From a virus, in the IMG/VR virus record IMGVR_UViG_3300034069_000595, positions 27,478 through 91,477 of that record: 64,000 nucleotides of DNA; one strand, written 5' to 3'. The notes beneath the pieces are model-generated. The model saw only the letters and a program-made list of their open reading frames with translations. It ran no database searches and had not been told where the DNA came from. Made by a program: the position numbers and the translations under genes. Positions 3,576-50,714 of this stretch are shown here, one piece after another; the stretch's first letter is position 1; each line of letters opens with the position of its first letter.

Positions 3576-3848
3576 ATGAACTTCGGAAGCAAAACCATCC
3601 CTGCGGGACAGACCTTGACCATATCTGACGTCCCGGCCGGTACAGCGCTGGGCGTGAACCCGGGTCCAGGCGGGACAATGCGGGTGCAATATCGGATCAG
3701 CTCGAACGGGCAATTGTTCGACTGGCCATCGGGCCCGGTGACCGCGCAGATGTCTGACGTAACTGGATCGCCCTCATTCCAAGTCGTGTTCTCGGCGCTC
3801 GATGCGGACGGCTTCGCGGAATGGAACTCGCCGAAGCGGCGACCATAG
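3576..3848 (+). CDS. Small beta-rich virion accessory/adaptor protein
   Basis: ORF just downstream of the late motif; resembles small phage adaptor proteins (VNPGPGGTMRVQY..WPSG). Confidence 0.5.
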   Translation: MNFGSKTIPAGQTLTISDVPAGTALGVNPGPGGTMRVQYRISSNGQLFDWPSGPVTAQMSDVTGSPSFQVVFSALDADGFAEWNSPKRRP

Positions 3849-4087
3849 GAGGCAGACCCATACCAACAATATTTCAGCGCGGATCTGCCTCCCTCATGGG
3901 CGGCGCCTCCGCGAGCAAGCGCGGCATGTCAGGCGGCGTTCCGGCCCCGAGTGTCGGCGATCAAAACATGTTCCTCCGTGGCGATGGCACTTGGTCGCCA
4001 CCGCCAGCAGCTGATGCCGCCCTGAGTGTCGATGACCTATCCCTTCCCTTTGACCCCGTTGCAGCGTTCGAGAACGCCATAGGCTGA
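3821..4087 (+). CDS. Small fibre-like protein
   Basis: GGVPAPSVGDQNMFLRGDGTW is a motif typical of phage fibre proteins. Confidence 0.55.
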   Translation: MELAEAATIGGRPIPTIFQRGSASLMGGASASKRGMSGGVPAPSVGDQNMFLRGDGTWSPPPAADAALSVDDLSLPFDPVAAFENAIG

Positions 4088-4090
4088 CCC

Positions 4091-4585
4091 ATGTCTCTCG
4101 TTACCCAAGTCCAAAACCTGATCACCCGCACCGGCACCGAATTCAAGTCGGTGCGGGCGGCGATCGGCAATCTCGCCAATCTGACCACTTCGGCAAAAGG
4201 AGATGTGGTTACGGCAGTGAATGAGGTCCGCGCGCTGGCGAACAGTGCCGCTGGCATGATCAACGACTCGGCAGCCTCGACCGGGACAACGTACTCAAGC
4301 AGCAAGACCGACGCCCAGATCGCAGCAGCGCTCGCCGCCTTCACATCGGGAGCGCCGGCCGCGTTGGACACCTGGAACGAGTTGGTAGCCGAGCTGCAGA
4401 AAGATGCGACGGGCATCGCCGCGCTCACGGCAGCGCTGGGCAACCGTCTGGCGACAGATGCTGTGCAGACCCTCACGCCGCAACAGAAGGCTCAAGCCAT
4501 CGCGAACCTTGGCTCGATCGCAGCTGCTGATGTCGGCGACGTGACCACGGACTTTGTGGCTGCCTTCAATCAGGCCCTCCTGTGA
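4091..4585 (+). CDS. Head-fibre/collar-like coiled-coil protein
   Basis: MSL..R..TEFKSVR..IGNLANLTT.AK..VV.AVNE and APAALDTW.EL motifs of phage fibre/decoration proteins. Confidence 0.6.
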   Translation: MSLVTQVQNLITRTGTEFKSVRAAIGNLANLTTSAKGDVVTAVNEVRALANSAAGMINDSAASTGTTYSSSKTDAQIAAALAAFTSGAPAALDTWNELVAELQKDATGIAALTAALGNRLATDAVQTLTPQQKAQAIANLGSIAAADVGDVTTDFVAAFNQALL

Positions 4586-4995
4586 GCCTGGCCGGCGAGG
4601 TCGTTAAGGGTGTCCTGAGGATCGCAGCGGAGTTCAAATCAGTCAGGACCGCCCTGGCGAGCCGCGTGGCATGCTGGGACGCGCTCGGCCTTATGCCTGC
4701 TCCGGTGGAGTGGCAGGGGACGGCAACCTCTCTGTCGGATGGCACCTGGTCGGTGAGCTTTCCCGCGGGCCTGTTCACCAAGGCTCCGCTCGTGTTCACG
4801 CAGGCAATATCCCCCGATAAGACGGCAGCTGCCACCTATGTCGCTGCGCCATGGCCGTCCACAATCTCTGGCTGTAGCGGCCACGTAGTCACTGGCAACA
4901 TCGTCACCACGCTGCTGATCAACGCCGGCGCCAACGGCCTCAAACTGTCCGGCGCGGGGATCACGGTGAACGTCCTGGCGAAATCTGTGCGCTAG
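4582..4995 (+). CDS. Fibre-tip-like protein paralogous at its N-terminus to the 4091 gene
   Basis: GTGA overlap with the previous gene; MSLAGEV..RIAAEFKSVRTAL; C-terminal lectin/gp53-like beta domain (WSVSFPAGLFTKAPLVF). Confidence 0.55.
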   Translation: MSLAGEVVKGVLRIAAEFKSVRTALASRVACWDALGLMPAPVEWQGTATSLSDGTWSVSFPAGLFTKAPLVFTQAISPDKTAAATYVAAPWPSTISGCSGHVVTGNIVTTLLINAGANGLKLSGAGITVNVLAKSVR

Positions 4996-5086
4996 TCCTG
5001 CGACGCTTCGACTCCCGTGCAAAATGGCTATTCCCCAAAGTCGCTCATCGCAATAGGACGACACCGCTCTCACAAAGGAGTTGTGT

Positions 5087-5368
5087 ATGGGTATAGGTAA
5101 GCGACCGGGATGGACAGCCGCTGAGCTTGAGTTGCTTGGCGGGTTAGCCGCCCACTTTCCACCAGACACCTTGGGCGAGCAGGGCTGTACAGAGGAGGGA
5201 GATCCTTGGTTTGTCTTGGAGCGGCCTGACGGATCAGCTCTCGTGCACTTTGCTAAAATTGAAAAACGCTACGTCAGCGCGACATCGCAGGCCGGTGAGT
5301 TTGATGCTCACGATCAAATAGTGCCGCTGGTGCTGAGATTTCTCCGGCGCAACAACAAGACTGACTGA
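5087..5368 (+). CDS. Hypothetical protein with a TEEGDPWFV...VHFAKI motif
   Basis: AAGGAG RBS; visibly more A/T-ending codons than the structural genes. Confidence 0.6.
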   Translation: MGIGKRPGWTAAELELLGGLAAHFPPDTLGEQGCTEEGDPWFVLERPDGSALVHFAKIEKRYVSATSQAGEFDAHDQIVPLVLRFLRRNNKTD

Positions 5369-5394
5369 CTAGAAATGTAGACTTTCGAATATGG

Positions 5395-5420
5395 AAAACC
5401 CCGCCGGAGCGGGGTTTTTT
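5395..5420. terminator. Bidirectional terminator
   Basis: aaaaccccgc-cgga-gcggggtttttt between convergent genes. Confidence 0.85.
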
Positions 5421-5425
5421 GTGCC

Positions 5426-6016
5426 TTACAGAAGATTTCCGACGTAGGCGTTTGGGTCATCCAGAGCGGCTGCGCGCAGCATCGAGTTGATGTTGGCGTA
5501 GGTGCGGTTGATGAACTCCTGGCCCTCGCTGAAGGCGACGATGCAATTGGAGCGGGTCAGGGAGCCGCTGTCCAGCGCGGCGGTATAAGCTGCCAAGCCA
5601 CCAGCGTCTGGCGAGCGGCCGAGGACAACCTCGTACAGGATGGTGACGAAGGTGCTGTTCGACGAGCTGGGCGAGTAGACGGCCTGGAATTCGGCCGAGG
5701 TTGCCAGGGCGGCGGCAACAGCCTGCACCGCTGCGGTCTGATTTCCGAGGGCATTGCGGTTGGCGACCAGGCTCGCAGCCCAGCTGTCCAAGCCTGCGGT
5801 GTCTGGCTTGCGTCGGAACATTGCCTGGTAGAGGCGGCAGATCGGGCGGACGTTGGAATCCACTTCGCCCTGGCCGATCAACTCTTCCACCATAGTGGCA
5901 TAGGTCGTACCGCTGCCAAGCCGGACGTTGTAGGCCTCAAGGTAACCAGATGGAGCAGAGGGGGTGCGAACAGTCGCGTGCCAGGCTTTGTTAATTTGCG
6001 CGTCATAAACGCCCAT
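5426..6016 (-). CDS. Stand-alone DUF4214 / S-layer-anchor-like protein 1
   Basis: RLYQAMFRRKPDTAGLDSW and FVTILYEVVLGRSPDAGGL motifs; GAGGT RBS before ATG 6016. Confidence 0.75.
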   Translation of the reverse strand: MGVYDAQINKAWHATVRTPSAPSGYLEAYNVRLGSGTTYATMVEELIGQGEVDSNVRPICRLYQAMFRRKPDTAGLDSWAASLVANRNALGNQTAAVQAVAAALATSAEFQAVYSPSSSNSTFVTILYEVVLGRSPDAGGLAAYTAALDSGSLTRSNCIVAFSEGQEFINRTYANINSMLRAAALDDPNAYVGNLL

Positions 6017-6046
6017 GAAGCACCTCAGTACAATGGATGAGGGCAC

Positions 6047-6062
6047 ATGGTCAGGTCACGAC
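6047..6062 (-). promoter_or_regulatory. Late promoter motif
   Basis: GTCGTGAC-CTG-A-CCA-T on the minus strand. Confidence 0.7.
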
Positions 6063-6073
6063 AAATACGGCGC

Positions 6074-6103
6074 AAAAAAAGGCCCACCGAAGTGGGCCCT
6101 TTT
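6074..6103. terminator. Terminator
   Basis: aaaaaaa-ggcccac-cgaa-gtgggcc-ctttt. Confidence 0.8.
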
Positions 6104-6115
6104 ACTGGGTGCTGA

Positions 6116-6715
6116 TCAGGCGGCGACGTCGTGGTCCGTCACCTGGCGGGCATAGGCGTTCGGCACGTCGAAGAAAGCTTCCTTCAAGGTGCGCTCAAAC
6201 GAGGCGTCGAAGCGCCCGATGAACTCTGGCGAGCCGGCAAAGCGAGCCACGGTGCCCGGGCGGGTCCACTGACCGCTGTCAATCAGGTTGACGACATTGG
6301 TGATCTCGCTCGCCTCGCCAGGTCGACCAAGAAGGTCGGTGTACAGCTTCTGGACGAAAAAGATGGTGGTCATGGTCTGCGGAAAGCGAGCCAGGTACTC
6401 AGCCGTGTTCGCCCAGTACGTTTCCATGAAGTAAATGGTGTTCTGGTTCTGGATGCCCCGCAGGATCCCTGCCCACAAATCCAGCCCGGCAGAGTCGGCC
6501 GATCGACCGAATGCAGCTCGATAGAGACGCATCATTTGCAGCGTCTCCAGTTGCACGGTTGTTGCGCGGAACACGTTGCTGAGCACCTGGTCAAGCGGTG
6601 TTCCGGCGTTGAGCATATTGGTCAAGTAAGTTCGAAAATCGGCGGGAACCGTAGTCGAAGTCAGTCGGAAGTACACGGCGTAGATTTTGTTGATTGCAGC
6701 GTCGAATGAGACCAT
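6116..6715 (-). CDS. Stand-alone DUF4214 / S-layer-anchor-like protein 2
   Basis: RLYRAAFGRSADSAGLDLW and FVQKLYTDLLGRPG motifs; GAGGT RBS. Confidence 0.75.
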   Translation of the reverse strand: MVSFDAAINKIYAVYFRLTSTTVPADFRTYLTNMLNAGTPLDQVLSNVFRATTVQLETLQMMRLYRAAFGRSADSAGLDLWAGILRGIQNQNTIYFMETYWANTAEYLARFPQTMTTIFFVQKLYTDLLGRPGEASEITNVVNLIDSGQWTRPGTVARFAGSPEFIGRFDASFERTLKEAFFDVPNAYARQVTDHDVAA

Positions 6716-6741
6716 AGGCACCTCAATTGGGTTGAGGCTTT

Positions 6742-6757
6742 AGTCTGCTGTCACGCC
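6742..6757 (-). promoter_or_regulatory. Late promoter motif variant
   Basis: GGCGTGAC-AGC-A-GAC-T on the minus strand. Confidence 0.55.
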
Positions 6758-7096: not shown

Positions 7097-7103
7097 CGCG
7101 GCT

Positions 7104-32712: not shown

Positions 32713-34833
32713 ATGGCTAACCAACCCGAAGTCACCAGCTATGATGCTGGCGTCTACCAGCTTGAGATTACAGACCCGGTCGACGGTGGCGTCGGAGCGG
32801 TATCTAACGCCCCCTTGCTCGCCCTGGCGAACCGCACAAACTATCTGAAAAAACACTTGGACGACCTGGAGTCCGGTACAACCATTCCAGCTGGGATCGC
32901 GCGAATTGCCTCTCCTGCTTTTACTGGGTCGCCGACCGCACCTACGCAGGCAGCTGGTGACAACTCCACGAAGCTGGCTACCGATCAGTTCGTGCAGACT
33001 GCCGTGAACGGCATTGTGGTGGTGGACATTTCGGGTGCGGCGACCACCACGCTTACGCAAGCGCAGTGGGGTACCGCAATCATTGTGCTGACCGGCGCAG
33101 TTACAGCCAACAAGGCTGTAGTGTTCCCCGCTCAATCGGGGCACTGGCAAGTCGTAAACAGCACTACCGGGAACTTCACGGTTACCTTGAAGACCGCAGC
33201 AGGCGCTGGGGTGGATATCACTCGCGGACGCTCGTCGAACATCTATTGCGATGGCAATGGTGTCAGCCTCCAGCAAACTGACTTTGTCAGTCCAGCACTT
33301 ACCGGTTCGCCAACTACGCCGACGCCCACGGTCGGCGCGAACAACACTTTGATCGCGAATATGGCCGCCCTTCTACAGGGTATGGCGGCATTCGGGATCG
33401 GAGCTGTCAACGGGCCACAGGTGACAGATCTCAATGCGTTGAGCGCTGGCGGGATGTACTACGCAACGTCTTCTGCCAATGGGCTCCCAATCGCTGCAAA
33501 TTCGTCAATAGCGCACCTTCCGTACAGCGACGGCAGCGCGGCGTTGCAGATTTGCAGTACCTTGGCGGTGCCAGTTCGTATTTATTATCGGACACGCGCA
33601 TCGGGCACATGGAACCCGTGGGACGAGTTTGGCAAGCTGAATTCGCCTGCCTTCACCGGCGCTCCTACCACGCCCACTCCAAGCTTGGGCGACACATCAA
33701 CCAAAGTCGCAAACATGGCCGCATTAGCGCAAGCGCTTACCGCGCGCAGTCGAGCTTATGCCTCGGGCGTCCCAACCGTTACTGCTGACACGACATTACT
33801 TCCTTCCGGAGTTGGTCTTGCCTATCGGATCAACGGCGCAAGCGCGCTGACTGTCACTTTGCCCAGCCCAGCCGATGTCACATCCGGCTGCAGCTACACC
33901 ATTCGCAATGAAAGCCTTTTCCCGGTTACGGTCACCACGCCTGTTGGCAACATTTTCTCAGCTTACGCCGCGCAGGCCACTTCTCTGGTGCTGGCGAGCA
34001 ACGAATGGATTGAAATCCAGGCGTCAGGTACAGGAGCCTGGGTGGTTGATACCCGCGGCAAGCTCAGCGAAACAGCTGCGATCAACTCCCCATCTTTCAC
34101 GGGCGCTCCAACCGCTCCAAGCTTAGCTCGTTTCACCGCTGGTAGTGGCTTGGTAAACGCCGACACACTGAAAGCTTCCGGCATCCAGGCCAACACATTC
34201 CGTAGCGTAGACCTGTCTGTCGCCACCGTTAACCTGGCAGCCTCAGACGCCGGCTCGGTCATTGCTATCACCGGATCTGGTGGCGGCACCCTCGTACTGC
34301 CAGCGGCAAACGCTGTACCAGCAGGGGCGTTGATCACGATCCGATGCAATAACACCGGGGTTTCGACGAACACCCTAAAGGGCTCGGGCACAAATACGAT
34401 CGGCGGCGAAGTGGGTGCCGGAGCGAACACAGCATTGTTGATTTCCGGCGATTGCATGGTGCTCGTGTCGGATGGCGTATCGAAGTGGGATGTTGCTGTC
34501 GAGGCGACAGCGGCTTTCGTAGCCAACCTGTTCACGACTAACCAGCAACTGACCGCCAATGGATATCAGAAGCTTCCCGGCGGATTGATCATGCAGTGGG
34601 GAGGCGCTCAAACATCTGCATCTGGCGTTGTATTGGTTGTTATGCCGGTGACTTTCACGAACCCCCCGAGAAGCATCGTTGCAACCGTTGCGAACAGTGC
34701 TGCTAACAACGTTTCCGTTGCAGTCAACGTTGTGACTAACGGCTCCTTCAGAGGGTACACTACTGCCGGGTCTTCTGGCTCAGTCGGTACGGCCGGACCT
34801 CTGGCATTCAACTGGTTAGCGATCGGATATTAA
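32713..34833 (+). CDS. Tail fibre protein
   Basis: YQLEITDPVDGG..NAPLLALANRT.YLK N-terminus; four SP(A/S)(F/L)TG.PT(A/T)P repeats; C-terminal GYQKLPGGLIMQWG domain. Confidence 0.92.
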   Translation: MANQPEVTSYDAGVYQLEITDPVDGGVGAVSNAPLLALANRTNYLKKHLDDLESGTTIPAGIARIASPAFTGSPTAPTQAAGDNSTKLATDQFVQTAVNGIVVVDISGAATTTLTQAQWGTAIIVLTGAVTANKAVVFPAQSGHWQVVNSTTGNFTVTLKTAAGAGVDITRGRSSNIYCDGNGVSLQQTDFVSPALTGSPTTPTPTVGANNTLIANMAALLQGMAAFGIGAVNGPQVTDLNALSAGGMYYATSSANGLPIAANSSIAHLPYSDGSAALQICSTLAVPVRIYYRTRASGTWNPWDEFGKLNSPAFTGAPTTPTPSLGDTSTKVANMAALAQALTARSRAYASGVPTVTADTTLLPSGVGLAYRINGASALTVTLPSPADVTSGCSYTIRNESLFPVTVTTPVGNIFSAYAAQATSLVLASNEWIEIQASGTGAWVVDTRGKLSETAAINSPSFTGAPTAPSLARFTAGSGLVNADTLKASGIQANTFRSVDLSVATVNLAASDAGSVIAITGSGGGTLVLPAANAVPAGALITIRCNNTGVSTNTLKGSGTNTIGGEVGAGANTALLISGDCMVLVSDGVSKWDVAVEATAAFVANLFTTNQQLTANGYQKLPGGLIMQWGGAQTSASGVVLVVMPVTFTNPPRSIVATVANSAANNVSVAVNVVTNGSFRGYTTAGSSGSVGTAGPLAFNWLAIGY

Positions 34834-34845
34834 GGCGAGATCCCA

Positions 34846-35274
34846 ATGATTTTATACAGCGCGTCAACTGGCCTTTTTTACGATACCGATTTAGGCGCGG
34901 AAACCCCGTCCGACGTGGTTGAAGTCTCCCGCGAAGATCATCAGAAATTGCTCGACGGGCAGACCGATGGGAAGGTTATTTCCTCGTCCGCCGATGGTCA
35001 GCCCGTACTGATCGAGCGGCCTCCGCTGACGGTCGAGGAGCTGACCGCGATGGCCTTTGGCAGTCGCGACAACATGCTTTCGTTTTCCGCCATTCGCATC
35101 GCGCCACTGCAGGATGCGGTAGATATGGATCAGGCCAGCGATGAGGAAGTTGCGAGCCTGGCGACGTGGAAGCAATATCGGATTGATCTGAACCGGATCC
35201 ATCTCCAGAAGGGATTTCCGGAGAAGATTAAGTGGCCCGCATCGCCTGAAGAATTGGCCGCAACTGTCTCGTGA
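34846..35274 (+). CDS. Tail fibre assembly chaperone
   Basis: IAPLQDAVD...WKQYRIDLNRI...WP motif, typical of Pseudomonas prophage fibre chaperones. Confidence 0.88.
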   Translation: MILYSASTGLFYDTDLGAETPSDVVEVSREDHQKLLDGQTDGKVISSSADGQPVLIERPPLTVEELTAMAFGSRDNMLSFSAIRIAPLQDAVDMDQASDEEVASLATWKQYRIDLNRIHLQKGFPEKIKWPASPEELAATVS

Positions 35275-35284
35275 CGCACATAAT
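35268..35284 (+). promoter_or_regulatory. Late promoter motif (N4 spacer variant)
   Basis: CTCGTGAC-GCAC-A-TAA-T. Confidence 0.6.
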
Positions 35285-35307
35285 CTGCTGCTGCAATCCG
35301 CAGTGTC

Positions 35308-35994
35308 ATGAGCGTTTCATATATGCCAGCGATCGGCCCGTTTGAAAAAGTCAGCTTTACCACCTACGCCAATATTCGCGCAGGGAACAATGGCTCTGTC
35401 GTCATCACTACCGGTGACGATAGCGCTCCTGGCGCAGAATTTATCCTCGGCACTGATGGCAGCCTGCTCTCCAACGGGGTTGCATTCAGCAAAGGCGGTG
35501 GCAGTGCGCCTACTGGCGGCGCAACTGAGCAGTACGTCGATGAATCGATCGCTGCCGCCGTGGATGGCCTGGCGAGCGAAGCCTACGTTGCCGACCAGAT
35601 CCAGGCGGCTGTCGGCGCCGGCAGCGGCTCTCCGAGTGCCGTTCCGGCCTGGACTAAGCCGGCGCTGCTGAACAACTGGCGTGCGCACCCGGATGGCCCA
35701 ATTGTAGCGATGGAGCGTCCAGGCTTCCGCAAGGTCGGCCACCGCGTCGAGTTCACCGGTTCGCTGGCTGGTGGTGAGGTCGTAGGTGCGGGGCTCCAGC
35801 CTGGTCATACCTGCGTGATCTTCCGCCTCCCGGTCGGCTATCGCCCGTTGGTAGGTCAGAAGACGCTACTGGTATCGGCACCAGGCAACACCGTGGGCAC
35901 CATCAAGGTTTTCCCTGATGGACAGGTCGTCTACATCGCTGGCGCAATGCAAGGCGAGATCTCGCTGCACGGCGTTTCGTTTCCCCTCGACTGA
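35308..35994 (+). CDS. Accessory receptor-binding-like protein A
   Basis: C-terminal LLNNW...RK...VEFTG.LAGG...IFRLPVGYRP phage RBP head domain. Confidence 0.65.
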   Translation: MSVSYMPAIGPFEKVSFTTYANIRAGNNGSVVITTGDDSAPGAEFILGTDGSLLSNGVAFSKGGGSAPTGGATEQYVDESIAAAVDGLASEAYVADQIQAAVGAGSGSPSAVPAWTKPALLNNWRAHPDGPIVAMERPGFRKVGHRVEFTGSLAGGEVVGAGLQPGHTCVIFRLPVGYRPLVGQKTLLVSAPGNTVGTIKVFPDGQVVYIAGAMQGEISLHGVSFPLD

Positions 35995-36010
35995 TCTTTG
36001 CAGCTGTAAC

Positions 36011-36040
36011 AAGCGCGCCCTACGGGGCGCGTTTCTATTT
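36011..36040 (+). terminator. Terminator
   Basis: aagcgcgccc-tacg-gggcgcgtttctattt. Confidence 0.75.
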
Positions 36041-36065
36041 GCACATCTAATCCGCAAAATGTGTC

Positions 36066-36081
36066 GTCGTGACTGAACAAT
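36066..36081 (+). promoter_or_regulatory. Late promoter motif
   Basis: GTCGTGAC-TGA-A-CAA-T. Confidence 0.7.
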
Positions 36082-36118
36082 CTCTTTGCTGCAATCCGTA
36101 GCGATAGAGATCTTCCTG

Positions 36119-36640
36119 ATGTCCGATATTGGCCCATTCGATCACATTTTTCTCAATGACACCGCAAACCTGGAAGCGCAGCCTGATGGCGCTGTGGTCC
36201 TGTATACCGGCGGCGATGGTGTCTCCGGAAGCCAGTTCACCTTCACGGCCGAAGGCAAGATCCTGGTTGATGGCAGCGAGTACGCTGGTCCGGCCCCGGC
36301 GGCGCCCGCAGTGCCTGCTTTCATCGCTCCGATACTCCTGAACAGCTGGAAGAATCACGGCGATACGGCCAACTACAAGCAATCGGTGGCTGGCTATCGC
36401 AAGCACGCTGACGGCACCGTTGAGCTGACTGGCCTGGTGGATGGTGGGGCTGTTGGCACCAACATTTTCAACCTGCCAGCCGGCTACCGTCCTGCCAACC
36501 AGAAGGCCTTTGCGGTCTGCTGTGCCGCGAGCGGCGACACCATTGCCTTCATCAAGATCCAGCCTAACGGCAACGTGCTGTTCTCCACCGGCACGCCAAA
36601 CTCGGTCTTCTTGACTGGCGTTCGCTTCCCACTGGCTTGA
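36119..36640 (+). CDS. Accessory receptor-binding-like protein B (paralog of A)
   Basis: IGPF N-terminus shared with A; LLNSW...RK...VELTG.VDGG...IFNLPAGYRP. Confidence 0.65.
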   Translation: MSDIGPFDHIFLNDTANLEAQPDGAVVLYTGGDGVSGSQFTFTAEGKILVDGSEYAGPAPAAPAVPAFIAPILLNSWKNHGDTANYKQSVAGYRKHADGTVELTGLVDGGAVGTNIFNLPAGYRPANQKAFAVCCAASGDTIAFIKIQPNGNVLFSTGTPNSVFLTGVRFPLA

Positions 36641-36652
36641 TCCAGACGTAGC

Positions 36653-36681
36653 AAAAAATGCGCCTTCCGGGGCGCATTTTT
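36653..36681. terminator. Terminator
   Basis: aaaaaatgcgcc-ttccgg-ggcgcattttt. Confidence 0.8.
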
Positions 36682-36717
36682 GTTTCCGCCTGTCTGATCG
36701 GCGATTTGCCAGCAGCC

Positions 36718-36733
36718 GTCGTGACATCAGCCT
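36718..36733 (+). promoter_or_regulatory. Late promoter motif for the lysis operon
   Basis: GTCGTGAC-ATC-A-GCC-T. Confidence 0.7.
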
Positions 36734-36764
36734 CTGCTTTGTACTCACACAAAGCGGAACACCC

Positions 36765-37073
36765 ATGACTTCCTTCAAACGTACCAAGGCCCTTGCCGAT
36801 AAGTCGGCCTGGCTGCTCATGCTCCCCTCAATCGTTGCGCTGTGTTTCATCGACCTGTCGATGCTCAAGACGCTGCTCCAGTGGCTCGTCTTCGCCCCAG
36901 TCCTGGCCGGTGTGGCGGTCATCGTCAGCCGCATCGTGTTCCCCCAGATCCATCTCAGCGACCTGGTTGATCAGACCGAGCAGGGCAACACGGCCTCCGC
37001 CATCCTGGCGTCCGCTCTGGTGATTTTCGTGGCTCTTGTGGTGCTCGCCCTGGTCATGTGGGCGAAGGCGTAA
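36765..37073 (+). CDS. Putative holin
   Basis: 102 aa, three hydrophobic segments, directly upstream of the endolysin. Confidence 0.6.
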   Translation: MTSFKRTKALADKSAWLLMLPSIVALCFIDLSMLKTLLQWLVFAPVLAGVAVIVSRIVFPQIHLSDLVDQTEQGNTASAILASALVIFVALVVLALVMWAKA

Positions 37074-37786
37074 TGAAGCGCCTCCTGCTCGCCCTCATCG
37101 TCCAGGCGATCCTGTCTGTCCCGGCGGCTGCCGCGGACGCAGTGCCAGCCCGGGCGGCTCAGTACCTGCCGACCCTGGTGGGTGCCCAGCGTTCGATCTG
37201 GCCGGGCGCACCTATGCCGTCCTTCCTGGCCGCTCAGGTCGAGCAGGAAAGCTGCATCACGCTCAAGCACTCCAAGTGCTGGAACCCGACAGCCCAGCTC
37301 AAAACCTCGCGCGAGTGGGGCCGCGGACTGGGCCAGGTCACCACGGCCTACCGCACAGACGGCTCGGTGCGCTTCGACAAGCAGGAGGAGCTGCGCCAGC
37401 AGTTTCCCTCGCTGCGAGGCTGGACCACTGCCAGGTGGTCGGACCCAACCTACCAGCTGACCGCCATCGTCGAGATGGACAAGTCGATCTACGGGCGCCA
37501 GCGCGACGCGGCCGATCCGATCGAGCAGCTGAAGTTCACGCTGTCAGCCTATAACGGCGGCGAGGGTGGCGTGCTCCAGGACCGCCGGCTCTGCGCGAAC
37601 ACGAAGGGTTGTGACCCTTCGCGCTGGACTGGACACGTCGAGCGCACAAGCCTGAAAAGTAAAATCGCCTCGAAGGGCTACGGAAAGTCCTTCTTCGCAA
37701 TAAACCGGGAGTACGTCACCAATATTCTGGATGTACGTCGGCCCAAATACGAACGATTTTTCAGGGCCACATCCGATGTCAATTGA
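37073..37786 (+). CDS. Endolysin, lytic transglycosylase (SLT) family with N-terminal signal
   Basis: AAQVEQES catalytic Glu, GRGLGQ, LSAYNGGEG. Confidence 0.85.
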   Translation: MKRLLLALIVQAILSVPAAAADAVPARAAQYLPTLVGAQRSIWPGAPMPSFLAAQVEQESCITLKHSKCWNPTAQLKTSREWGRGLGQVTTAYRTDGSVRFDKQEELRQQFPSLRGWTTARWSDPTYQLTAIVEMDKSIYGRQRDAADPIEQLKFTLSAYNGGEGGVLQDRRLCANTKGCDPSRWTGHVERTSLKSKIASKGYGKSFFAINREYVTNILDVRRPKYERFFRATSDVN

Positions 37787-38000
37787 ACGCGAGGAATTTC
37801 GCGAGTTGGAAAAGGCGGTCGATGCGGTCGATCGCAACACCATCCGCCTGCAAGAGCAGGTGAGTAGCATGCAGAAGAAGATCGACGACCTTGTGTCCCG
37901 AGCTGAATTTGCTCCCGTCAAACTGATCGCTTACGGGCTCGCAACTGCCGTTGGCTCATCGGTTATCATGGCGATCCTCGCCAAGGTGATCATCAAATGA
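37776..38000 (+). CDS. Coiled-coil plus C-terminal TM lysis-associated protein
   Basis: 74 aa with a single C-terminal TM segment, inside the lysis cassette. Confidence 0.55.
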   Translation: MSIEREEFRELEKAVDAVDRNTIRLQEQVSSMQKKIDDLVSRAEFAPVKLIAYGLATAVGSSVIMAILAKVIIK

Positions 38001-38455
38001 ACCTCGATCTCAGCTTCAGAGACCGCGCCTTTATTGGCGCGGCTCTCTACCTCGGTTTCCTGTTCGTCTCGATGATCACGCTGTATTGGCTGATCCTCAT
38101 CGGCGGCAACCCGATGACGGTCACCAACGTCGGGATCGTCAGCGCAACGGGGTTCCCGAACGATCGATTCCACGCAGGCGATGTTGTCGGCATCAAGCGT
38201 CAGCTCTGCTCGAAGCACGAGTTGGCGGTGCAGTTCTTCCCGTCTCTGGTCGATTCACGCGGATACAGGTTCCCGCTGCCTGGCGGCATGGCTGAAGTCC
38301 AGGAGGGCTGCCACACGACCACCTACGGGTTCGTCGTCCCTGACCTGCCGGCCGGCGAATACACCTACTCGAACGCCGTCCGCTTCCAGAACAACCTGGT
38401 GGGCCGCGACGAGGCCGCAACCTTTCCCCCGCTGCGCATAAGGATCATGAGATGA
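37997..38455 (+). CDS. Membrane-anchored periplasmic protein (antiholin-like?)
   Basis: N-terminal TM and beta-rich domain with two Cys; ATGA overlaps. Confidence 0.5.
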   Translation: MNLDLSFRDRAFIGAALYLGFLFVSMITLYWLILIGGNPMTVTNVGIVSATGFPNDRFHAGDVVGIKRQLCSKHELAVQFFPSLVDSRGYRFPLPGGMAEVQEGCHTTTYGFVVPDLPAGEYTYSNAVRFQNNLVGRDEAATFPPLRIRIMR

Positions 38456-38889
38456 GCATTGTTACCGATCTGGCGCTGGGCACAGCATCGTCCGCCGTCA
38501 AGCGCTCCCTTCTTCCCTGGTTCCTCGTGGCCGCCATGCTGGCCCTCGGCTCTGCTGGCGCAGCTGGCATGTACGGCGGCTATGAGATCGCCAACGCCCG
38601 CTACGCCAAGGAGCGCGCTGCACTGCAGGACGCACAGCTCGAAGCATTGAAAGCCAAGGGCGAGGCGCTGGCAGAGGCGACCAAGCGCGGCGATGAGGTC
38701 GCAGGCAATTTCCTTGCTGCGCTGAAGGACATGAAGATCGTGAACACCACGATCAACAACGAGGTGCGCAAGGAGACTGAGAAGCTGGTCTACACCGACT
38801 GCAAGCTCCCCGACAGCGGCGCTGACCTGCTCAAGAAGAACGTGGACGCGGTCAACCTGCGTCTGCTTGGGAAGGGGAAAACGAAGTGA
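38452..38889 (+). CDS. i-spanin (Rz-like)
   Basis: TM anchor, coiled coil, C-terminal YTDCKLPD. Confidence 0.7.
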   Translation: MSIVTDLALGTASSAVKRSLLPWFLVAAMLALGSAGAAGMYGGYEIANARYAKERAALQDAQLEALKAKGEALAEATKRGDEVAGNFLAALKDMKIVNTTINNEVRKETEKLVYTDCKLPDSGADLLKKNVDAVNLRLLGKGKTK

Positions 38890-39140
38890 GATATCTGGCA
38901 CTGGCCATCGCCCTGATGCTGGGCGGCTGCGGCACAACTTATGAGTTCAGGGTTGATGCCGATCAGGCAAAGGCCGATCGAGCGCTGACAGAGACTTGCG
39001 ACATCGTGCCGGACCCGCCGTCCCGTGGATCGTCGTTCGGAACGGTCTATGAGTTCGGCAACAAAATGGTCGGGCTGTACGGTGAGTGCGCGGTACGTGA
39101 CCGCGCGAAGTACGATTACATCAAGAGCCAGGGGCACTAA
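38886..39140 (+). CDS. o-spanin (Rz1-like lipoprotein)
   Basis: LGGC lipobox; YGECAVR motif. Confidence 0.7.
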   Translation: MRYLALAIALMLGGCGTTYEFRVDADQAKADRALTETCDIVPDPPSRGSSFGTVYEFGNKMVGLYGECAVRDRAKYDYIKSQGH

Positions 39141-39367
39141 GCCCGCTGGGCCGCGGCCTTCTCCTGGAGCGTCTTGCACCCGACGCAGATGCGAAAACCG
39201 TGGGACCGCCTGGCGTCCGGCATGTCATCGCCGCAGCTGTCAACGACGCAGAACTCCGGACCGTAGCCGGGCTCACCAGGTGCATATTTCACGGGCGCCG
39301 GCCGCGACCGGTTGTTGCGTTCCCACTCCAGCAGCTCGACCGCCTGCGTTTGATCTTCCAAAGACAT
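39137..39367 (-). CDS. TraR/DksA C4-type zinc-finger protein
   Basis: C..C.DDMPDARR....ICVGCK; 76 aa. Confidence 0.75.
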   Translation of the reverse strand: MSLEDQTQAVELLEWERNNRSRPAPVKYAPGEPGYGPEFCVVDSCGDDMPDARRSHGFRICVGCKTLQEKAAAQRA

Positions 39368-39419
39368 CCTGTGTTCCTCGCATAAAAATGGCCCCGGGTT
39401 CGTTCCGGGGCCTGTTGTC

Positions 39420-39435
39420 ATTCTGGTGTCACGCC
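39420..39435 (-). promoter_or_regulatory. Late promoter motif variant for the TraR-like gene
   Basis: GGCGTGAC-ACC-A-GAA-T. Confidence 0.5.
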
Positions 39436-39438
39436 GCC

Positions 39439-40749
39439 TCAGGCAGCGAGCTTGAACGCCATGGCCGCCGGGGCTTTCGCCTCGACGTTATCCGCCAGCC
39501 AGGCGGACCACTTATCCATCGCGGCAGTCATCTCGGGCAGGTAGTCGGCCCTGTCGTAGTTCTTCGAGCCGGTGTCGTTCTTCGCGTGCTGCTGGATCAG
39601 GTCGCGGGTGAAGCGATCGACACCAGCGTCATGGGCACGCGACTTCCAGGTTCGTCGGATGTCGCGGGTCTGGAAGTGGTCGAGCTTGCAGCCCTCGCTG
39701 TCCAACCAGCGGGTGATGGCGCGCCCTACCAGCCTGAAGTCCATCATCTCGCCCTGACCGTTGTTGAACAGGGGCCCGTCGCCAAATTGCATAATCAGCT
39801 CGCGCAGCGGCTCGATCGCCTGCGTCGGCAGCGGGATCGTATGGGCGCGCTTGCGGCCCTTCGTTTTCTCTTTGGGCATCTTCCACAAGCCGTTCAAGAG
39901 GTCGATGTCGGCGCCGTCGATCCGCAGCGTCTCCTGCACGCGCTGCCCGCAGCAGATGAGCATGCGGATGCAGATCGCAATCTTCTGGTTGAACACCTCG
40001 GCACCCGGGTCGCTGGCTTTCCAAAGGATCTTCAGCTCGGCGGCATCGAGGTTCCGGTCGCGGGTTCCGACTGCCTCGGGATCTCGTGCGACGTCGGCGG
40101 CCGGGTTGCGGGTCAAGGTCCAGGTGTACTGCACCTTCGCCGTGTAGTCGTTCGTGGACCGGATCGCCCAGTTGTAGGCCGAGGAGATGTAGCCGCGCTG
40201 CTTGTCGGCTGCTCCACGGTGGCCCCTTTGGAAGAACTCGGCCACGTGGGCGACCACGTCCTTCGGCTGCACGTCAGCCGCCGGCGTATCACGCCCGAAG
40301 GCCTTCGCCGCTGCGTACCTGCCCGTCAGCAGCGCGCGCTCGACGTTGATGGCGCTGGCCTTGCCCTTGGCCCGCATGTGGGCCACGTAGCCCTCGAACA
40401 CCTCCGCAACTGATCCAGGCTTGGCGAGGTTCGGATCGACCGGCTCGCCCTGATCGGCTGCCTTGACGGGCTTCAGGGCAAGGGCAGGGTCATGGCCCTG
40501 AGCAATCTCGGCGAACTTGGTGCGGGCCAGGTCGCGGGCCTTCTCGGGCGGCATGTCGGAGGTCCGGCACAGGCTCAGTTTGCGCGCTGTCCGTTCGGCC
40601 GTCTTGGTCCGATATCGGATCACATAGGCCTTCCGGCCGCTAGCCTGGACACGGACGCCGAAGCCCTCCAGCTCGCTGTCCCAGTGGCACACGTAGCCCG
40701 TCGCGGGGGCTGCCAGCTTATCCACAAACGCCTTCGTCAGTTTCGGCAT
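39439..40749 (-). CDS. int: Tyrosine integrase with arm-binding N-terminal domain
   Basis: KLTKAFVD...WDSELEGFGVRV arm domain; CGQR, RDIRRT, H and YDRADY catalytic motifs. Confidence 0.93.
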   Translation of the reverse strand: MPKLTKAFVDKLAAPATGYVCHWDSELEGFGVRVQASGRKAYVIRYRTKTAERTARKLSLCRTSDMPPEKARDLARTKFAEIAQGHDPALALKPVKAADQGEPVDPNLAKPGSVAEVFEGYVAHMRAKGKASAINVERALLTGRYAAAKAFGRDTPAADVQPKDVVAHVAEFFQRGHRGAADKQRGYISSAYNWAIRSTNDYTAKVQYTWTLTRNPAADVARDPEAVGTRDRNLDAAELKILWKASDPGAEVFNQKIAICIRMLICCGQRVQETLRIDGADIDLLNGLWKMPKEKTKGRKRAHTIPLPTQAIEPLRELIMQFGDGPLFNNGQGEMMDFRLVGRAITRWLDSEGCKLDHFQTRDIRRTWKSRAHDAGVDRFTRDLIQQHAKNDTGSKNYDRADYLPEMTAAMDKWSAWLADNVEAKAPAAMAFKLAA

Positions 40750-40956
40750 GATGGTCTCTTTTGTCGGTCGTCCGGTGCTCGATCGCGATCGAACTCCTTG
40801 GGTTGCACGCCGGAGAAAGCTGGGCCCAATCGGGCCCCGACTTTCGCGACATGGCAGTGAATTTACGGGGTGCAACGGCGGGCCGAAACCCTGTTAAGCC
40901 GTTGATGCAATGATCATAAATGATCAATCGGTAATTGGCGAGATTTTTCCGAAAGC

Positions 40957-41003
40957 GACTACGAATCTGGGGGTCAGAGGTTCGAATCCTTTCGGGCGCG
41001 CCA
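40957..41003 (+). other. attP core: 3' half of tRNA-Arg(ACG)
   Basis: GACT-ACG-AATCTGG GGGTC AGAGG-TTCGAAT-CCTTT CGGGCGC G CCA: anticodon loop, T-arm and CCA present, 5' half absent; beside int. Confidence 0.88.
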
Positions 41004-41208
41004 GTTTCTTCCCTGTAAATTCACTTACAGGTCAACGACTTGCACAGCGGTGAATCCGCTGTCAATGAGGCCCCCTTGCGGGGCCTTTTTCGTTCGGGCC
41101 CCTCATGGGCCTCAAGTCGTATCGGGATGGGCCGTGATGAGGCCCACTTTCGGGGCCCATTGCGTGAACTCGCGGGGGTGCGACGTTCTGTCAAAGCAGG
41201 CTTGAGGT

Positions 41209-46991: not shown

Positions 46992-47957
46992 TTAAGCGGC
47001 TTCTTCGAAGTCGCGATATGCGTAAGGGGGGAGCTGTGCCTGGATGACTTTCCCGCCATCGGCGCCAGGCCAGATGTCGTGCGCCTCGCACCACAGCAGA
47101 CGAGCCAAGTCGCGCTGATACGTCCGGCGGCCGAGTTCGATCTGGTCTGCGGTGAGGAAGTGAACTGCTACGTCGTGCGGGCGCGCCTTCTGAGCAGCAA
47201 CAAACGCGAAGATCTCCGGCGCATCTTTGCCGTAGAGCCCGTAGAGAATGTCCAGATACCAGGCGGCCTGTACGTGGTATCGACGCTGGAAGATCGTGCG
47301 ACCGAAGCCGACCTCGCTGACATCTTCAGTCGTCTTCAGGTCCGGAATGACCAGCCCGTTGGCGCTGATGGCGTCTGTACGGCATTTGCGCAGAACGCCC
47401 TGATCGTCACGCCAGTAGAACGATTGCTCAGTTGCAGCGCCTTTGAGGAGCCCGCCAGCGGTATGGTGGCGCTCGACTGAGCGGAGCATGCCGAGCATGT
47501 TCTTATAGTCGCTCGCAGGGATAGCGATCTTGCCCGCCATCTTTGCCTCATGGTCCTGCTTGAGCAGCATCATGATCTTTTCGCGAGGGTAGCCGGCCTC
47601 CTCGATGAGGCGGCGAGACAGCTCAGCCTTCGTACCGCTGGTAACCAGCATCTCTCTGGCGAGCGCCTGCTTCAGATCGTCAGCGCTATCCAGCGCATTA
47701 GGATGCGCCGAACGATCGAAACCGACCGCGTAGGTCTGCTCGAACGTGCCGGGCTCCAGGATGATCTTGTGCGTGCCGTCACCTACGGCGAAAGCGTGCT
47801 TGTATTCACGTTCTTCGCGGTTCGGATTGACGTATTGATCCCAGTAATTCAGGCCGCTGATCGCGATGGCGTCGAGCTTACTCTTACTGATACCTGGTCC
47901 CGCGTGATACTGCTCGTTGGTTTGCTCAACCAAGCCGAGCGGATGGTCATCGCTCAC
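46992..47957 (-). CDS. RecE/exonuclease VIII-like PD-(D/E)XK nuclease with inserted SAP motif
   Basis: YHAGPGISKSKL, KCRTD, PDLKTT, YHVQAAWY. Confidence 0.85.
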   Translation of the reverse strand: MSDDHPLGLVEQTNEQYHAGPGISKSKLDAIAISGLNYWDQYVNPNREEREYKHAFAVGDGTHKIILEPGTFEQTYAVGFDRSAHPNALDSADDLKQALAREMLVTSGTKAELSRRLIEEAGYPREKIMMLLKQDHEAKMAGKIAIPASDYKNMLGMLRSVERHHTAGGLLKGAATEQSFYWRDDQGVLRKCRTDAISANGLVIPDLKTTEDVSEVGFGRTIFQRRYHVQAAWYLDILYGLYGKDAPEIFAFVAAQKARPHDVAVHFLTADQIELGRRTYQRDLARLLWCEAHDIWPGADGGKVIQAQLPPYAYRDFEEAA

Positions 47958-48100
47958 TGGTGTTTGCCTCGGTGGATGGGTGTGAGGCAAAGGATAGCGT
48001 CAAATTTGAATAACGCGCAAGCATTTACAGGCGCTTTTCACGCGAAGTACCTGAATTGACCGACAGTTACTTGCGATTACCTATAAAAGCTTTCACCCCA

Positions 48101-48118
48101 TTGATCAAATAAGATAAA
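48101..48118. promoter_or_regulatory. Operator copy in the divergent promoter region
   Basis: TTGATCAAATAAGATAAA, 17/18 to the perfect copies. Confidence 0.7.
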
Positions 48119-48149
48119 CTGGCCCGACATTCACTTGGCTGAGACCACC

Positions 48150-48488
48150 ATGAGCGGGCAGAAAACGACAGAAAATAACGGCGCTGAACCACAGGGCTTC
48201 CAGGCGCTCTTTTATGGGCACCTCGATGCTCTGGAGCAGCGCGCTCACGCGGTAGGTCTGACCCTCACCGATATGTGCCGTGACGCCGATGTGGCGCGGG
48301 CGACCCCGGATCGCTGGCGCAAGAAGCTCCCGAAGACGATCCAGAACGTCTGCGACCTGGAAGCCGTCGTGGTGAAGGCCGAGCGCGAGGATGCGAAGGA
48401 CGCCGCGAGGCTCGAAGCCCGCGACCCTGACCAGCCGCCCGCGCCGGACACCCGAGCTGCGCTGCTGGCGGCACGCGCCCGCAACTGA
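48150..48488 (+). CDS. Cro/XRE-like HTH regulator
   Basis: LTLTDMCRDADVARATPDRW helix-turn-helix; first gene of the rightward operon. Confidence 0.6.
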   Translation: MSGQKTTENNGAEPQGFQALFYGHLDALEQRAHAVGLTLTDMCRDADVARATPDRWRKKLPKTIQNVCDLEAVVVKAEREDAKDAARLEARDPDQPPAPDTRAALLAARARN

Positions 48489-48522
48489 CCCCGGTCAACA
48501 TCGACTTTCAAGGTTTTGACCG

Positions 48523-50163
48523 ATGAAAATTACGCCCCGCGACTATCAGCAAGAGCTGATGGATAAAGTGCTGTCGTCATTCCGCTCCGGGAAGCGCTCT
48601 CCGCTTGTTGTTGCGGCGACCGGCGCTGGCAAAACGGTTGTATTCAGTGCCATTGCTTCAAGGGCTGCCAGTAAAGGCAATAAGGTTCTAATCCTTGCCC
48701 ACCGTGACACCCTAATCAAACAGGCCAGCAGCAAGCTGAAGGACTACGAGGTAGGCCACGGCATCATCATGGCGAGCTACACGCCGGATGCCCTCGCCAA
48801 GGTGCAGGTGGCATCGGTTCAGACCCTGGTGCGCCGCCTCGGCAAGATGCGGTTCGTTCCCGACCTGATCATCATCGACGAGGCCCATCTGTCGGCCGCG
48901 AAGTCGTACCTGGCGATCCTCGCGCACTTCGCGAAGGCGCTGGTGATCGGCTTCACCGGTTCGCCCTGCCGTCTCGACAACAAGCCGCTCGGGAAGGAAT
49001 CCGGCGGGATCTACGACGACCTGATCCAGGCCATTTCGATCCGCCAGCTCATTGATCGCGGGTTCCTGGTGCAGCCGACCGTATTCGGCGCCGAGGAAGC
49101 GCTGGATCTGTCCGGCATCAAAAAGAGCATGGGCGACTACAACACCGAGGAGCTGGCGGCGGTCGTCGATAAGCCGAAAATCACCGGTGACGCGGTCAAG
49201 CAGTACCAGAAGATCTGCCCGGGCGCCCCGGCCGTCGCCTGGTGCGTGACCGTCGAGCACGCCCAGCACGTAGCGGACGCCTTCAACGCCAACGGCATCA
49301 AGGCCGTCATGCTGTGTGGCGAGCACGACACCGCGTATCGGGACAAGACGCTGAAGGGGCTGGAGACCGGCGAGGTCCAGATCGTCACCTTCGTCGGCAT
49401 CCTGATCGAGGGCGTGGATTGCCCGGCGATCAGCGCCATCATCCTCCTGCGCCCGACCATGTCACTCGCCAGCTACTTGCAGGTGATCGGCCGTGGCCTG
49501 CGCCCGTACACGCTCCCGAGCGGCGAGAAGAAGTCGGTCTGCTACGTGCTCGACCACGCGGATCTCTGGCGCAAGCACGGGTTCGCGGACGAGGAGCGCG
49601 AGTGGGATCTGAACGGCGAGGTCAAAAAGAAGGGCAAGAAGAAGGACAAGGAGCCCACGGTCGATTTGATCCAGTGCCGCGGCTGCTTCGCGGTGTTCAG
49701 CCCCACCGCCGCTGCCGAAGCGGGCCAGAAGCATGACCTGGCCGGCGAGAAGCGTGGCCCGTGCTGCCCGAACTGCGGCAAGGCGATCGAGGTCAAGGTT
49801 CGCAAGCTGGAGCAGGTCGACGGCGAGCTGACCCAGATCACGCCCGAGATGGTCGAGGCGATGCGCAAGGATACCCGCCGCGAACAGGGTAGCGCACAGA
49901 CGCTAGAGGATCTGAAGGCGCTGGGCGCCAAGCTGGGCCGGTCGCCCAAGTGGGCCGAGCACGTGTTCAACGCTCGCCAGACCAAAAAGCCCAAGCCGAA
50001 ACGCCTGACGGCGCCGCCTCAGATCGAGCTGCCACCGGTACCCACCGATATCGAATTGAACAGCATGACGCTGGAGGAGCTGGAAGGCGTCCGCCTGGCG
50101 CAAGGTTGGCCGCTGTCGTGGCCGGTCGAATACTACAACCAACTTCGCGGCAACGCGTCGTGA
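48523..50163 (+). CDS. SF2 (DEAD/DEAH-like) helicase with C-terminal Zn finger
   Basis: ATGAGKT, DEAH, TGSP, QVIGRGLR; CRGC...CPNC. Confidence 0.92.
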   Translation: MKITPRDYQQELMDKVLSSFRSGKRSPLVVAATGAGKTVVFSAIASRAASKGNKVLILAHRDTLIKQASSKLKDYEVGHGIIMASYTPDALAKVQVASVQTLVRRLGKMRFVPDLIIIDEAHLSAAKSYLAILAHFAKALVIGFTGSPCRLDNKPLGKESGGIYDDLIQAISIRQLIDRGFLVQPTVFGAEEALDLSGIKKSMGDYNTEELAAVVDKPKITGDAVKQYQKICPGAPAVAWCVTVEHAQHVADAFNANGIKAVMLCGEHDTAYRDKTLKGLETGEVQIVTFVGILIEGVDCPAISAIILLRPTMSLASYLQVIGRGLRPYTLPSGEKKSVCYVLDHADLWRKHGFADEEREWDLNGEVKKKGKKKDKEPTVDLIQCRGCFAVFSPTAAAEAGQKHDLAGEKRGPCCPNCGKAIEVKVRKLEQVDGELTQITPEMVEAMRKDTRREQGSAQTLEDLKALGAKLGRSPKWAEHVFNARQTKKPKPKRLTAPPQIELPPVPTDIELNSMTLEELEGVRLAQGWPLSWPVEYYNQLRGNAS

Positions 50164-50219
50164 ACACAAACTGAACCCCACGCCATTTGGCGATGAGTGG
50201 AATAACCGAGGAATAAGCA

Positions 50220-50714
50220 ATGGCTCGTGGTGTAAACAAGGTGATTTTGGTCGGTACGTGCGGCCAGGATCCAGAGGTGAAGTACCTCCCCAACGGCAAC
50301 GCAGTGACCAACCTCAGCCTCGCAACCAGCGAGTCGTGGAAGGACAAGCAGAGCGGGGAGAAGGTCGAGAAGACCGAATGGCACCGCGTGTCGATGTTCG
50401 GCAAGGTCGCCGAGATCGCTGGCGAGTACCTGCGCAAGGGCTCCCAGGTCTACATCGAGGGCAAGCTACAGACCCGCGAGTGGGAGAAGGACGGCATCAA
50501 GCGCTACACGACCGAGATCGTCGTGGACATGCAGGGCACCATGCAGCTGCTCGGCGGCCGGCAGGACAATAACGGCGGCCAGGGTCGTGACAGCAACAAT
50601 CAGCCCTCACAGCGCCCGCAGCAACAGTCGCGCCCGCAGCAGCAAGCTCGGCCACAGCAGCCGCAGAACCCGGCCCCAGACTTCGACAGCTTTGACGACG
50701 ACATTCCGTTCTGA
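50220..50714 (+). CDS. ssb: Single-stranded DNA-binding protein
   Basis: [20 protein letters not shown]...FDDDIPF; closely resembles Pseudomonas SSB. Confidence 0.97.

Follow-up and report, generated by a model that had tools for sequence, protein, structure and literature searches.

A tyrosine integrase gene and, beside it, the 3' part of a transfer RNA (tRNA) gene form the integration module of IMG/VR virus record IMGVR_UViG_3300034069_000595, and the bacterial class indicated by this module differs from that indicated by other genes of the same genome. The window, i.e., the whole stretch of 64,000 nucleotides analysed here, corresponds to bases 27478-91477 of the 93,589-bp record, which is rated complete by CheckV. 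The integrase displays the domains PF13356 (5.5e-12) and PF00589 (1.5e-9), both above the curated cut-offs, as well as a match to phrog_1 (1.4e-43). Its start was fixed at residue 43 of a 478-amino-acid (aa) open reading frame (ORF; 39439-40875) by alignment with the integrase of Pseudomonas syringae phage Touem01 (77% aa identity), and an alignment of 28 integrase sequences contains invariant R, K, H, and Y columns, possible counterparts of the catalytic R-K-H-R-H/W-Y residues. The attachment (att) core of the phage site, attP, is located 207 bp from the start of the divergently oriented integrase (Table 1). It begins two bases 5' of the anticodon loop, includes the T-arm, and ends with CCA, and its sequence reads exactly as given in an earlier note on this DNA. 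ARAGORN found no complete tRNA in the window, the DNA upstream of the core is unable to form the 5' half of one, and the 47-nt core is present as a single copy in the entire record.

P4-type (DUF4102) tyrosine integrases reportedly insert into tRNA genes, with attP carrying the 3' part of the tRNA. In the mechanism proposed here, crossover by the integrase would take place within or adjoining the anticodon loop of a tRNA-Arg(ACG) gene. The 47 nt carried by the phage would become the new 3' part of the tRNA, followed by a phage terminator, and the displaced 3' end of the host tRNA would stay beside the integrase gene at the other end of the prophage. The hairpin with a T-run behind the core is, by its position, a candidate replacement terminator for the rebuilt tRNA in the lysogen; the number of terminator-like sites found by the scan is not above that of shuffled sequences (1 found vs 1.0 expected). 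The conserved block between integrase and core does not differ between the window and Touem01, in Pseudomonas putida phage Dolphis it is nearly identical, and a promoter-like site is found at 40941-40913 on the minus strand. The block is a candidate promoter or operator of the integrase gene, or alternatively an arm-type site.

Table 1 Features of the window (positions as in the window; a dot denotes no strand).
Feature	Position	Strand	Characteristics
Head-fibre or decoration-like protein	4091-4585	+	phrog_4757 (9e-44); 81% aa identity to Touem01_00045, same locus
Second gene of the pair, no assigned function	4582-4995	+	70% aa identity to Touem01_00046; no Pfam or PHROG match
Doubtful orphan ORF 5087	5087-5368	+	GC content at third codon positions 0.56 vs 0.73-0.85 in neighbours
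Two DUF4214 paralogues	5426-6046, 6116-6721	-	Pfam DUF4214
Tail fibre	32713-34833	+	Distal part in swapped host-range module (~33350-37830)
Fibre assembly chaperone	34846-35274	+	Pfam Caudo_TAP; 27% identity to Touem01 protein
Small gene downstream of the integrase	39137-39421	-	65% aa identity to Touem01_00085 'TraR protein'; no Pfam match
P4-type tyrosine integrase, 436 aa	39439-40749	-	Pfam Arm-DNA-bind_3 and Phage_integrase; phrog_1
Conserved block between integrase and core	40893-40927	.	Contains the palindrome TGATCATAAATGATCA
attP core	40957-41003	+	3' 47 nt of tRNA-Arg(ACG), reading away from the integrase
Hairpin and T-run	41067-41097	+	Terminator-like site by scan, 64 nt after CCA
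Single-strand DNA-binding protein	50220-50714	+	Pfam SSB

Conservation of the module and integrity of the genome

The identical 47-mer is found beside an integrase in Touem01, in the P. putida phages Dolphis and Jeremy, and in Klebsiella aerogenes phage KA2-1, and these four are its only carriers among 50,697 phage records. No base of the 47-mer has changed among the window and these phages, and the 120-bp flanks are 28-82% identical. The divergent layout of integrase and tRNA fragment also recurs in Touem01, Dolphis, and KA2-1, as well as in Bordetella phage PHB04. Between the window and Touem01, the ratio of nonsynonymous to synonymous substitution rates (dN/dS) of the integrase is 0.17 at a synonymous divergence (dS) of 0.92. 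Since the core is without changes and the dN/dS is this low, the integrase and the core are under purifying selection and have been inherited rather than recently imported. Touem01, Dolphis, and Jeremy carry both at the corresponding locus, where they have diverged along with the genome, and in the alignment of 37830-41193 with Touem01 the integrase and attP lie inside one aligned block (76% identity). The suggestion in the earlier note that the module had been imported is thus rejected, and the recent host switch considered there does not hold for this record either, since the integrase has reached a dS of ~0.9 relative to Touem01 with the module present in both.

Touem01 (Toucanavirus emiw, PP179325) is a 91.6-kb myovirus predicted to be temperate (PMC11256456). 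Using BLASTN, the record aligned to Touem01 in collinear blocks without any break in their order, extending from base 215 to base 93588 and covering 68% of the bases at block identities of 66-88% (mean 77%), and 48 of the 71 called proteins of the record have counterparts in Touem01, mostly at 55-97% aa identity. As the collinearity extends over the full record, the record is a free phage genome without host flanks, and the window comprises most of a complete, non-integrated, and temperate myophage genome of ~93.6 kb. The GC content is even over the whole window and amounts to 61.7% in the record. It had also been proposed that the record is an assembly chimera, in which a Pseudomonas phage was joined to an alphaproteobacterial integration module. 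Mixed taxonomic signals, and nothing further, speak for such an origin. Yet, the end-to-end collinearity with Touem01, including both sides of the integrase and attP, whose junctions fall inside aligned blocks, and the even GC content exclude it, and the same module occupies the same locus in three independently sequenced isolates, leaving a chimera with a negligible probability.

The intergenomic similarity of the record and Touem01, calculated as the BLASTN aligned fraction multiplied by identity, is ~0.52-0.53 in either direction. Following ICTV practice, phages of one genus display a genome-wide nucleotide similarity of 70% or more. The record lies below this threshold for Toucanavirus, and the gene order and core genes of Toucanavirus are common to both phages. 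Given the similarity of ~0.52, the record represents a sister lineage of Toucanavirus and not a member of the same genus.

Owners of the core and a lysogen in Microvirga lupini

The final 47 nt of complete tRNA-Arg(ACG) genes in Methylobacterium bullatum and Microvirga lupini are identical to the core, and the identity over 47/47 positions was checked in full tRNA genes at the M. bullatum, M. lupini, and M. persicinum loci. Scanning GTDB with the exact 47-mer, using one genome per species, resulted in at least 120 matching stretches. These belong to Alphaproteobacteria or to metagenome-assembled genomes (MAGs) of unclassified 'Proteobacteria', except for one Hydrogenophaga MAG, and no Pseudomonas-named genome is among the at least 120 exact matches listed. 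On plasmids, three exact matches were found, in Methylobacterium (two) and Microvirga (one), and none on a Pseudomonas plasmid. In the class of the Hydrogenophaga MAG, presumably Gammaproteobacteria in the GTDB taxonomy, 6 of 401 sampled genomes match at 47/47, while most match at 84-91%; the two unpublished genomes in this sample support none of the conclusions. Judging from these sequence matches, this version of the core belongs to Alphaproteobacteria and a few Burkholderiales-like genomes, and its attribution to Alphaproteobacteria in the earlier note is thereby borne out.

Chromosomal matches to the 47-mer reach at best ~80% in the complete genomes of E. coli (all 5426); for the mismatch between core and host tRNA, E. 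coli here represents Klebsiella, the host of KA2-1, and for Pseudomonas the mismatch is inferred. One E. coli record matches the 47-mer at 90-95%, with one matching place on a plasmid, and may represent a KA2-1-like element. It could be argued that no conflict exists at all if the Pseudomonas hosts own a tRNA-Arg(ACG) with the same 47 nt and the Pseudomonas motif given in the earlier note was wrong. Three phages of P. syringae and P. putida do hold the 47-mer unchanged, and the motif quoted for Pseudomonas, GGCT-ACG-AACCGAG, is present in the tRNA-Arg(ACG) of a provirus locus (L314) and corresponds to the E. coli argQ type. However, none of the GTDB matches listed is from Pseudomonas, a genus with very many species there, Pseudomonas plasmids gave no match, and most sampled genomes of the presumably gammaproteobacterial class of Hydrogenophaga reach only 84-91%. 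In addition, KA2-1, with E. coli as stand-in for its host, provides one case in which core and isolation host do not match, making a matching Pseudomonas tRNA very unlikely.

A natural lysogen of a relative is found in Microvirga lupini. IMG/VR record 2823949316_000001 (G465; 95,542 bp) is classed as a provirus, with proteins that carry the name Microvirga lupini. A histidine-kinase gene, the cluster of which is named Microvirga, opens the record, followed by a complete tRNA-Arg(ACG) that ends in the 47-mer. The phage DNA after this tRNA matches the right attP flank of Dolphis at 89% identity, and the gene order is as expected for a phage circle opened at attP, with the integrase at the far end. 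The rebuilt tRNA, i.e., attL, is visible in the provirus, and attR lies outside the end of the record. Hence, a Dolphis-like prophage is integrated at tRNA-Arg(ACG) in M. lupini.

The intergenomic similarity of Dolphis and the Microvirga prophage is 0.41, whereas that of Dolphis and either Touem01 or the record is 0.24. Between the prophage and Dolphis (MT711888), 55% of the bases align at 74.5% identity, with GC contents of 63.7% and 63.4%, and ~34% of the bases align between Dolphis and either Touem01 or the record. The Dolphis integrase is 77% identical to that of the Microvirga prophage and 82% identical to that of Jeremy, and a homologue of the family integrase is located on the chromosome of Kaistia sp. 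32K. As Dolphis is nearer to the Microvirga prophage than to Touem01, the family has close members in two bacterial classes. A cross-class host range, as raised in the earlier note, is thus supported at the level of the family, by the M. lupini lysogen and by its closest cultured relative, Dolphis, having been isolated on P. putida. The P. putida phages KoPa-4 and Roomu-2 fall in a different family, Vandenendeviridae.

The tRNA fragment beside the integrase is not constant in the wider integrase family. An alignment query of IMG/VR revealed 78 integrase relatives (a single-protein query gave none), and their neighbouring fragments include the exact 47-mer, the 47-mer with one change at its 5' edge, and Arg(ACG) fragments with variant T-arms, as well as fragments of His, Gly, Lys, and Thr tRNAs and a complete tRNA-Arg(TCT) in Jilinvirus-like phages. 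In one variant attP (L154), the T-arm is that of the tRNA-Arg(ACG) found at a provirus of Bradyrhizobium elkanii (L253). In other parts of the integrase family, attP thus follows the target tRNA, and against this background it is the unchanged alphaproteobacterial form in isolates from Pseudomonas that stands out as odd. Bordetella phage PHB04 (MF663786) carries an unannotated tRNA-His(GTG)-like 3' fragment ending in CCCA upstream of its integrase (L129:1135-1490), suggesting that the att target has been exchanged within the same 93-kb phage family. In the 41-44-kb phages HeidiAbel Bas97, Persinger, and Mano, a complete Arg-TCT or Lys-TTT tRNA stands divergently beside a homologous integrase. 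The Arg(TCT) genes are alike between E. coli and P. aeruginosa Jilinvirus-like phages, and that of Bas97 presumably differs from E. coli argU.

Many sequence variants emerged when IMG/VR was scanned with two degenerate patterns for complete tRNA-Arg(ACG) genes. Isolate-derived loci identified through an identical protein belong to Bradyrhizobium, Methylobacterium, Desulfosarcina, and Oxobacter. Host flanks with 64-70% nucleotide identity to named alphaproteobacterial loci were found at several of the GC-rich variants, among them the isolate-derived L328 and L309, and other loci gave no match. A HAMP sensor histidine-kinase gene lies directly upstream of tRNA-Arg(ACG) in Microvirga (L231:1-1449) and Bradyrhizobium (L253:313-1791), and nucleotide similarity indicates the same neighbourhood at Hoeflea, Pseudaminobacter, and Rhizobiaceae loci. 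The kinase and tRNA may accordingly be viewed as a conserved neighbourhood around a busy integration site. In 6 of 120 listed alphaproteobacterial loci, a different and distant integrase (23-30% aa identity) adjoins the same tRNA-Arg(ACG), indicating that several element families use this site.

Host signals and explanations of the mismatch

The single-strand DNA-binding protein (SSB) provides a Pseudomonas signal. Its best named relatives are all from Pseudomonas (75-80% identity over the full length), and its OB domain (aa 1-109) reaches 97% identity with the Touem01 SSB and 92-96% with those encoded on Pseudomonas plasmids. When the part of the window from 41000 to 64000 was compared with PLSDB, all 56 nucleotide matches (56/56) were to Pseudomonas, each to the SSB gene only, in agreement with the earlier description of this gene as Pseudomonas-like. 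The high identity is limited to residues 1-109 and the C-terminal tail is unaligned, which suggests a mosaic gene or a low-complexity tail. A Pseudomonas-like SSB was found in none of the class-level genome samples around the Hydrogenophaga genome. The phages closest to the record are Touem01, Jeremy, and Dolphis.

The distal tail fibre and its chaperone lie in a module without nucleotide alignment to Touem01 (33349-37830). The C-terminus of the fibre displays weak matches (29-44%) to phages of Pseudomonas, Ralstonia, and Curvibacter only, and none to phages of alphaproteobacterial hosts. The chaperone, which had been described as Pseudomonas-like, provides no host signal; its best phage matches are at most 41%, those of near full length (35-38%) are to Shigella, Erwinia, Ralstonia, and Bordetella phages, and its best matches in a large protein set (48-52%) are without organism name. 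Downstream of the chaperone, two paralogous small proteins (35308-35994 and 36086-36640) have no Pfam match and no counterpart in Touem01, and they may form a second receptor-binding set in the swapped module.

Taken together, the clash between att core and gene content is probably an inherited trait of a ~93-kb temperate phage family present in two bacterial classes. The explanation with the best support is one of an ancestral, functional module in a phage family that moved between Alphaproteobacteria and Pseudomonas. In this view, the integrase and attP constitute an old, vertically inherited module. The carried copy is that of an alphaproteobacterial tRNA-Arg(ACG), while the replication genes and the nearest cultured relatives point to Pseudomonas. 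We infer that the phage of this record still uses its integration module. Pseudomonas is the favoured present host of the record, if with limited assurance; an alphaproteobacterium is a much weaker candidate, and other hosts make up the remainder. Thus, the conflict observed in the earlier note is confirmed in part, and its interpretation is partly supported.

Several points weigh against this explanation. Lysogeny of Touem01 lacks experimental demonstration (PMC11256456). Some Pseudomonas tRNA may match exactly, as the absence of such a match is deduced from zero among the at least 120 matches listed. The record is metagenome-derived, and SSB genes move between replicons. Finally, none of the best 120 integrase homologues is from a genome named Pseudomonas, despite the many sequenced Pseudomonas genomes, which fits poorly with regular integration in Pseudomonas.

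The conflict would also disappear if the host were an alphaproteobacterium or a Burkholderiales-type bacterium with the matching tRNA and the Pseudomonas-type SSB were a remnant of gene exchange. The exact host site (attB) is widespread in Alphaproteobacteria and present in the 6 of 401 genomes of the Hydrogenophaga class, the genome of M. lupini harbours a family member and the chromosome of Kaistia sp. 32K a family integrase, attP variants track the host tRNA in the integrase family, and a GC content of 61.7% is compatible with many Alphaproteobacteria. However, the SSB of the Microvirga prophage is 66-74% identical to that of the record, far from the values reached by Touem01 and the Pseudomonas plasmids in the OB domain; among cultured phages, the nearest by far is one that infects P. 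syringae; and the fibre C-terminus has no match in phages of Alphaproteobacteria. Such a host is therefore considered rather unlikely.

Alternatively, the module could be a relic that lost its target after a jump from Alphaproteobacteria to Pseudomonas, in which case the phage would be virulent or a ParA-partitioned episome. The lack of Pseudomonas-named integrases among the best 120 homologues would be explained in this way, and nearly all integrase homologues are located on contigs no longer than a phage genome. Moreover, both the record and Touem01 encode a ParA-like ATPase, and Jilinvirus-type phages have intact integrases, yet lysogeny was never seen (PMC11990801). Decay is not apparent, however, as the integrase, intact in each of the four genomes of the cultured type, retains the low dN/dS over a dS of 0.92, and the 47-mer is unchanged where neutral drift would have introduced ~20 changes. 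A relic is thus improbable. It could also be speculated that the family, including the record, lysogenises Alphaproteobacteria at tRNA-Arg(ACG) and is lytic or maintained as a ParA-partitioned episome on Pseudomonas. This dual-class use would account for the unchanged att core and intact integrase in phages isolated on Pseudomonas, yet we regard it as doubtful.

An inherited mismatch between att site and isolation host is modestly surprising and bears on host prediction for uncultured phages, which relies heavily on matches between att sites and tRNAs. In this ~93-kb family, the att and gene-content signals indicate different bacterial classes, and the discrepancy is inherited and not an artefact. 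If the core has been kept through ongoing integration, either the integrase accepts an attB of diverged sequence or the phages pass between Alphaproteobacteria and Pseudomonas. The prophage of M. lupini provides a concrete natural lysogen for a phage group with a lifestyle that was only predicted before.

Neighbouring genes and comparison with known systems

Other genes of the window carry less host information. The pair at 4091 and 4582 had been associated with Alphaproteobacteria. The association with phages of such hosts is real, yet not specific: the phage relatives of the first protein (41-51% identity) infect Gordonia, Microbacterium, Caulobacter, Sinorhizobium, Rhizobium, Ralstonia, and Pseudomonas, thus spanning Actinobacteria and Alpha-, Beta-, and Gammaproteobacteria, and are annotated as head fibre, capsid-related, or tail fibre proteins, and the pair is present at the same locus in Touem01. 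Searches of the Microvirga prophage and of four metagenomic relatives revealed no copy of it. The protein of ORF 5087, also thought to be alphaproteobacterial-like, is an orphan with weak coding statistics; it has no family match and no counterpart in Touem01, and its Atlas scores (at most 0.84) are within the chance range. The two DUF4214 genes are absent from Touem01 and the Microvirga prophage and are found, likewise as a pair, in one metagenomic relative (G466) at 46% and 34% identity; the stretch 5426-6721 is a real local difference from Touem01.

A C5 cytosine methylase of 603 aa is encoded on the minus strand at 943-2754 and is not found in Touem01. At the nucleotide level, its gene is 75-77% identical to those in P. 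stutzeri phage vB_PstS-pAN and in Dolphis, and counterparts in phages of Aeromonas, Burkholderia, and Ralstonia reach ~70%. Outside the window, at 23628-24281 of the record, a ParA/MinD-type ATPase is encoded just upstream of the large terminase, as in Touem01, and may provide plasmid-like maintenance.

Among known phages, Touem01 resembles the record most. Besides the integrase, the attP core (47/47), the 4091/4582 pair, and the OB domain of the SSB, the two share the ParA-like gene and the myovirus structural module. They differ in the distal tail-fibre and chaperone module (33350-37830), which is replaced in the record, in the C5 methylase and the two DUF4214 genes, which only the record encodes, and in many early ORFs that are not alike. 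The Microvirga prophage and Dolphis belong to the same phage family and share the identical 47-nt core, with integrases 59-60% identical to that of the record at the aa level, and the prophage shows the integrated form predicted for the attP of the record. Yet, their intergenomic similarity to the record is ~0.21-0.24 and the capsid protein is 43% identical, and the prophage, chromosomal where the record is a free genome, has no detectable 4091/4582 pair or DUF4214 genes.

The Iiscvirinae/Jilinvirus-like myophages of 41-44 kb, including HeidiAbel Bas97, Persinger, Mano, and KA2-1, have integrases with 44-55% aa identity to that of the record and a divergent tRNA element, which in KA2-1 (44 kb) is the identical 47-mer, and the lifestyle of this group is also unsettled (PMC11990801). 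In contrast to the record, they form a separate phage group with half its genome size, and most hold a complete tRNA-Arg(TCT) or tRNA-Lys gene instead of a 3' fragment. Finally, the module resembles P4-type tRNA integrases in general in its domain make-up, in an attP adjoining the integrase gene, and in a tRNA identity extending from the anticodon loop to CCA, but it differs in a core that is unchanged in phages from hosts whose own tRNA-Arg(ACG) seems not to match.

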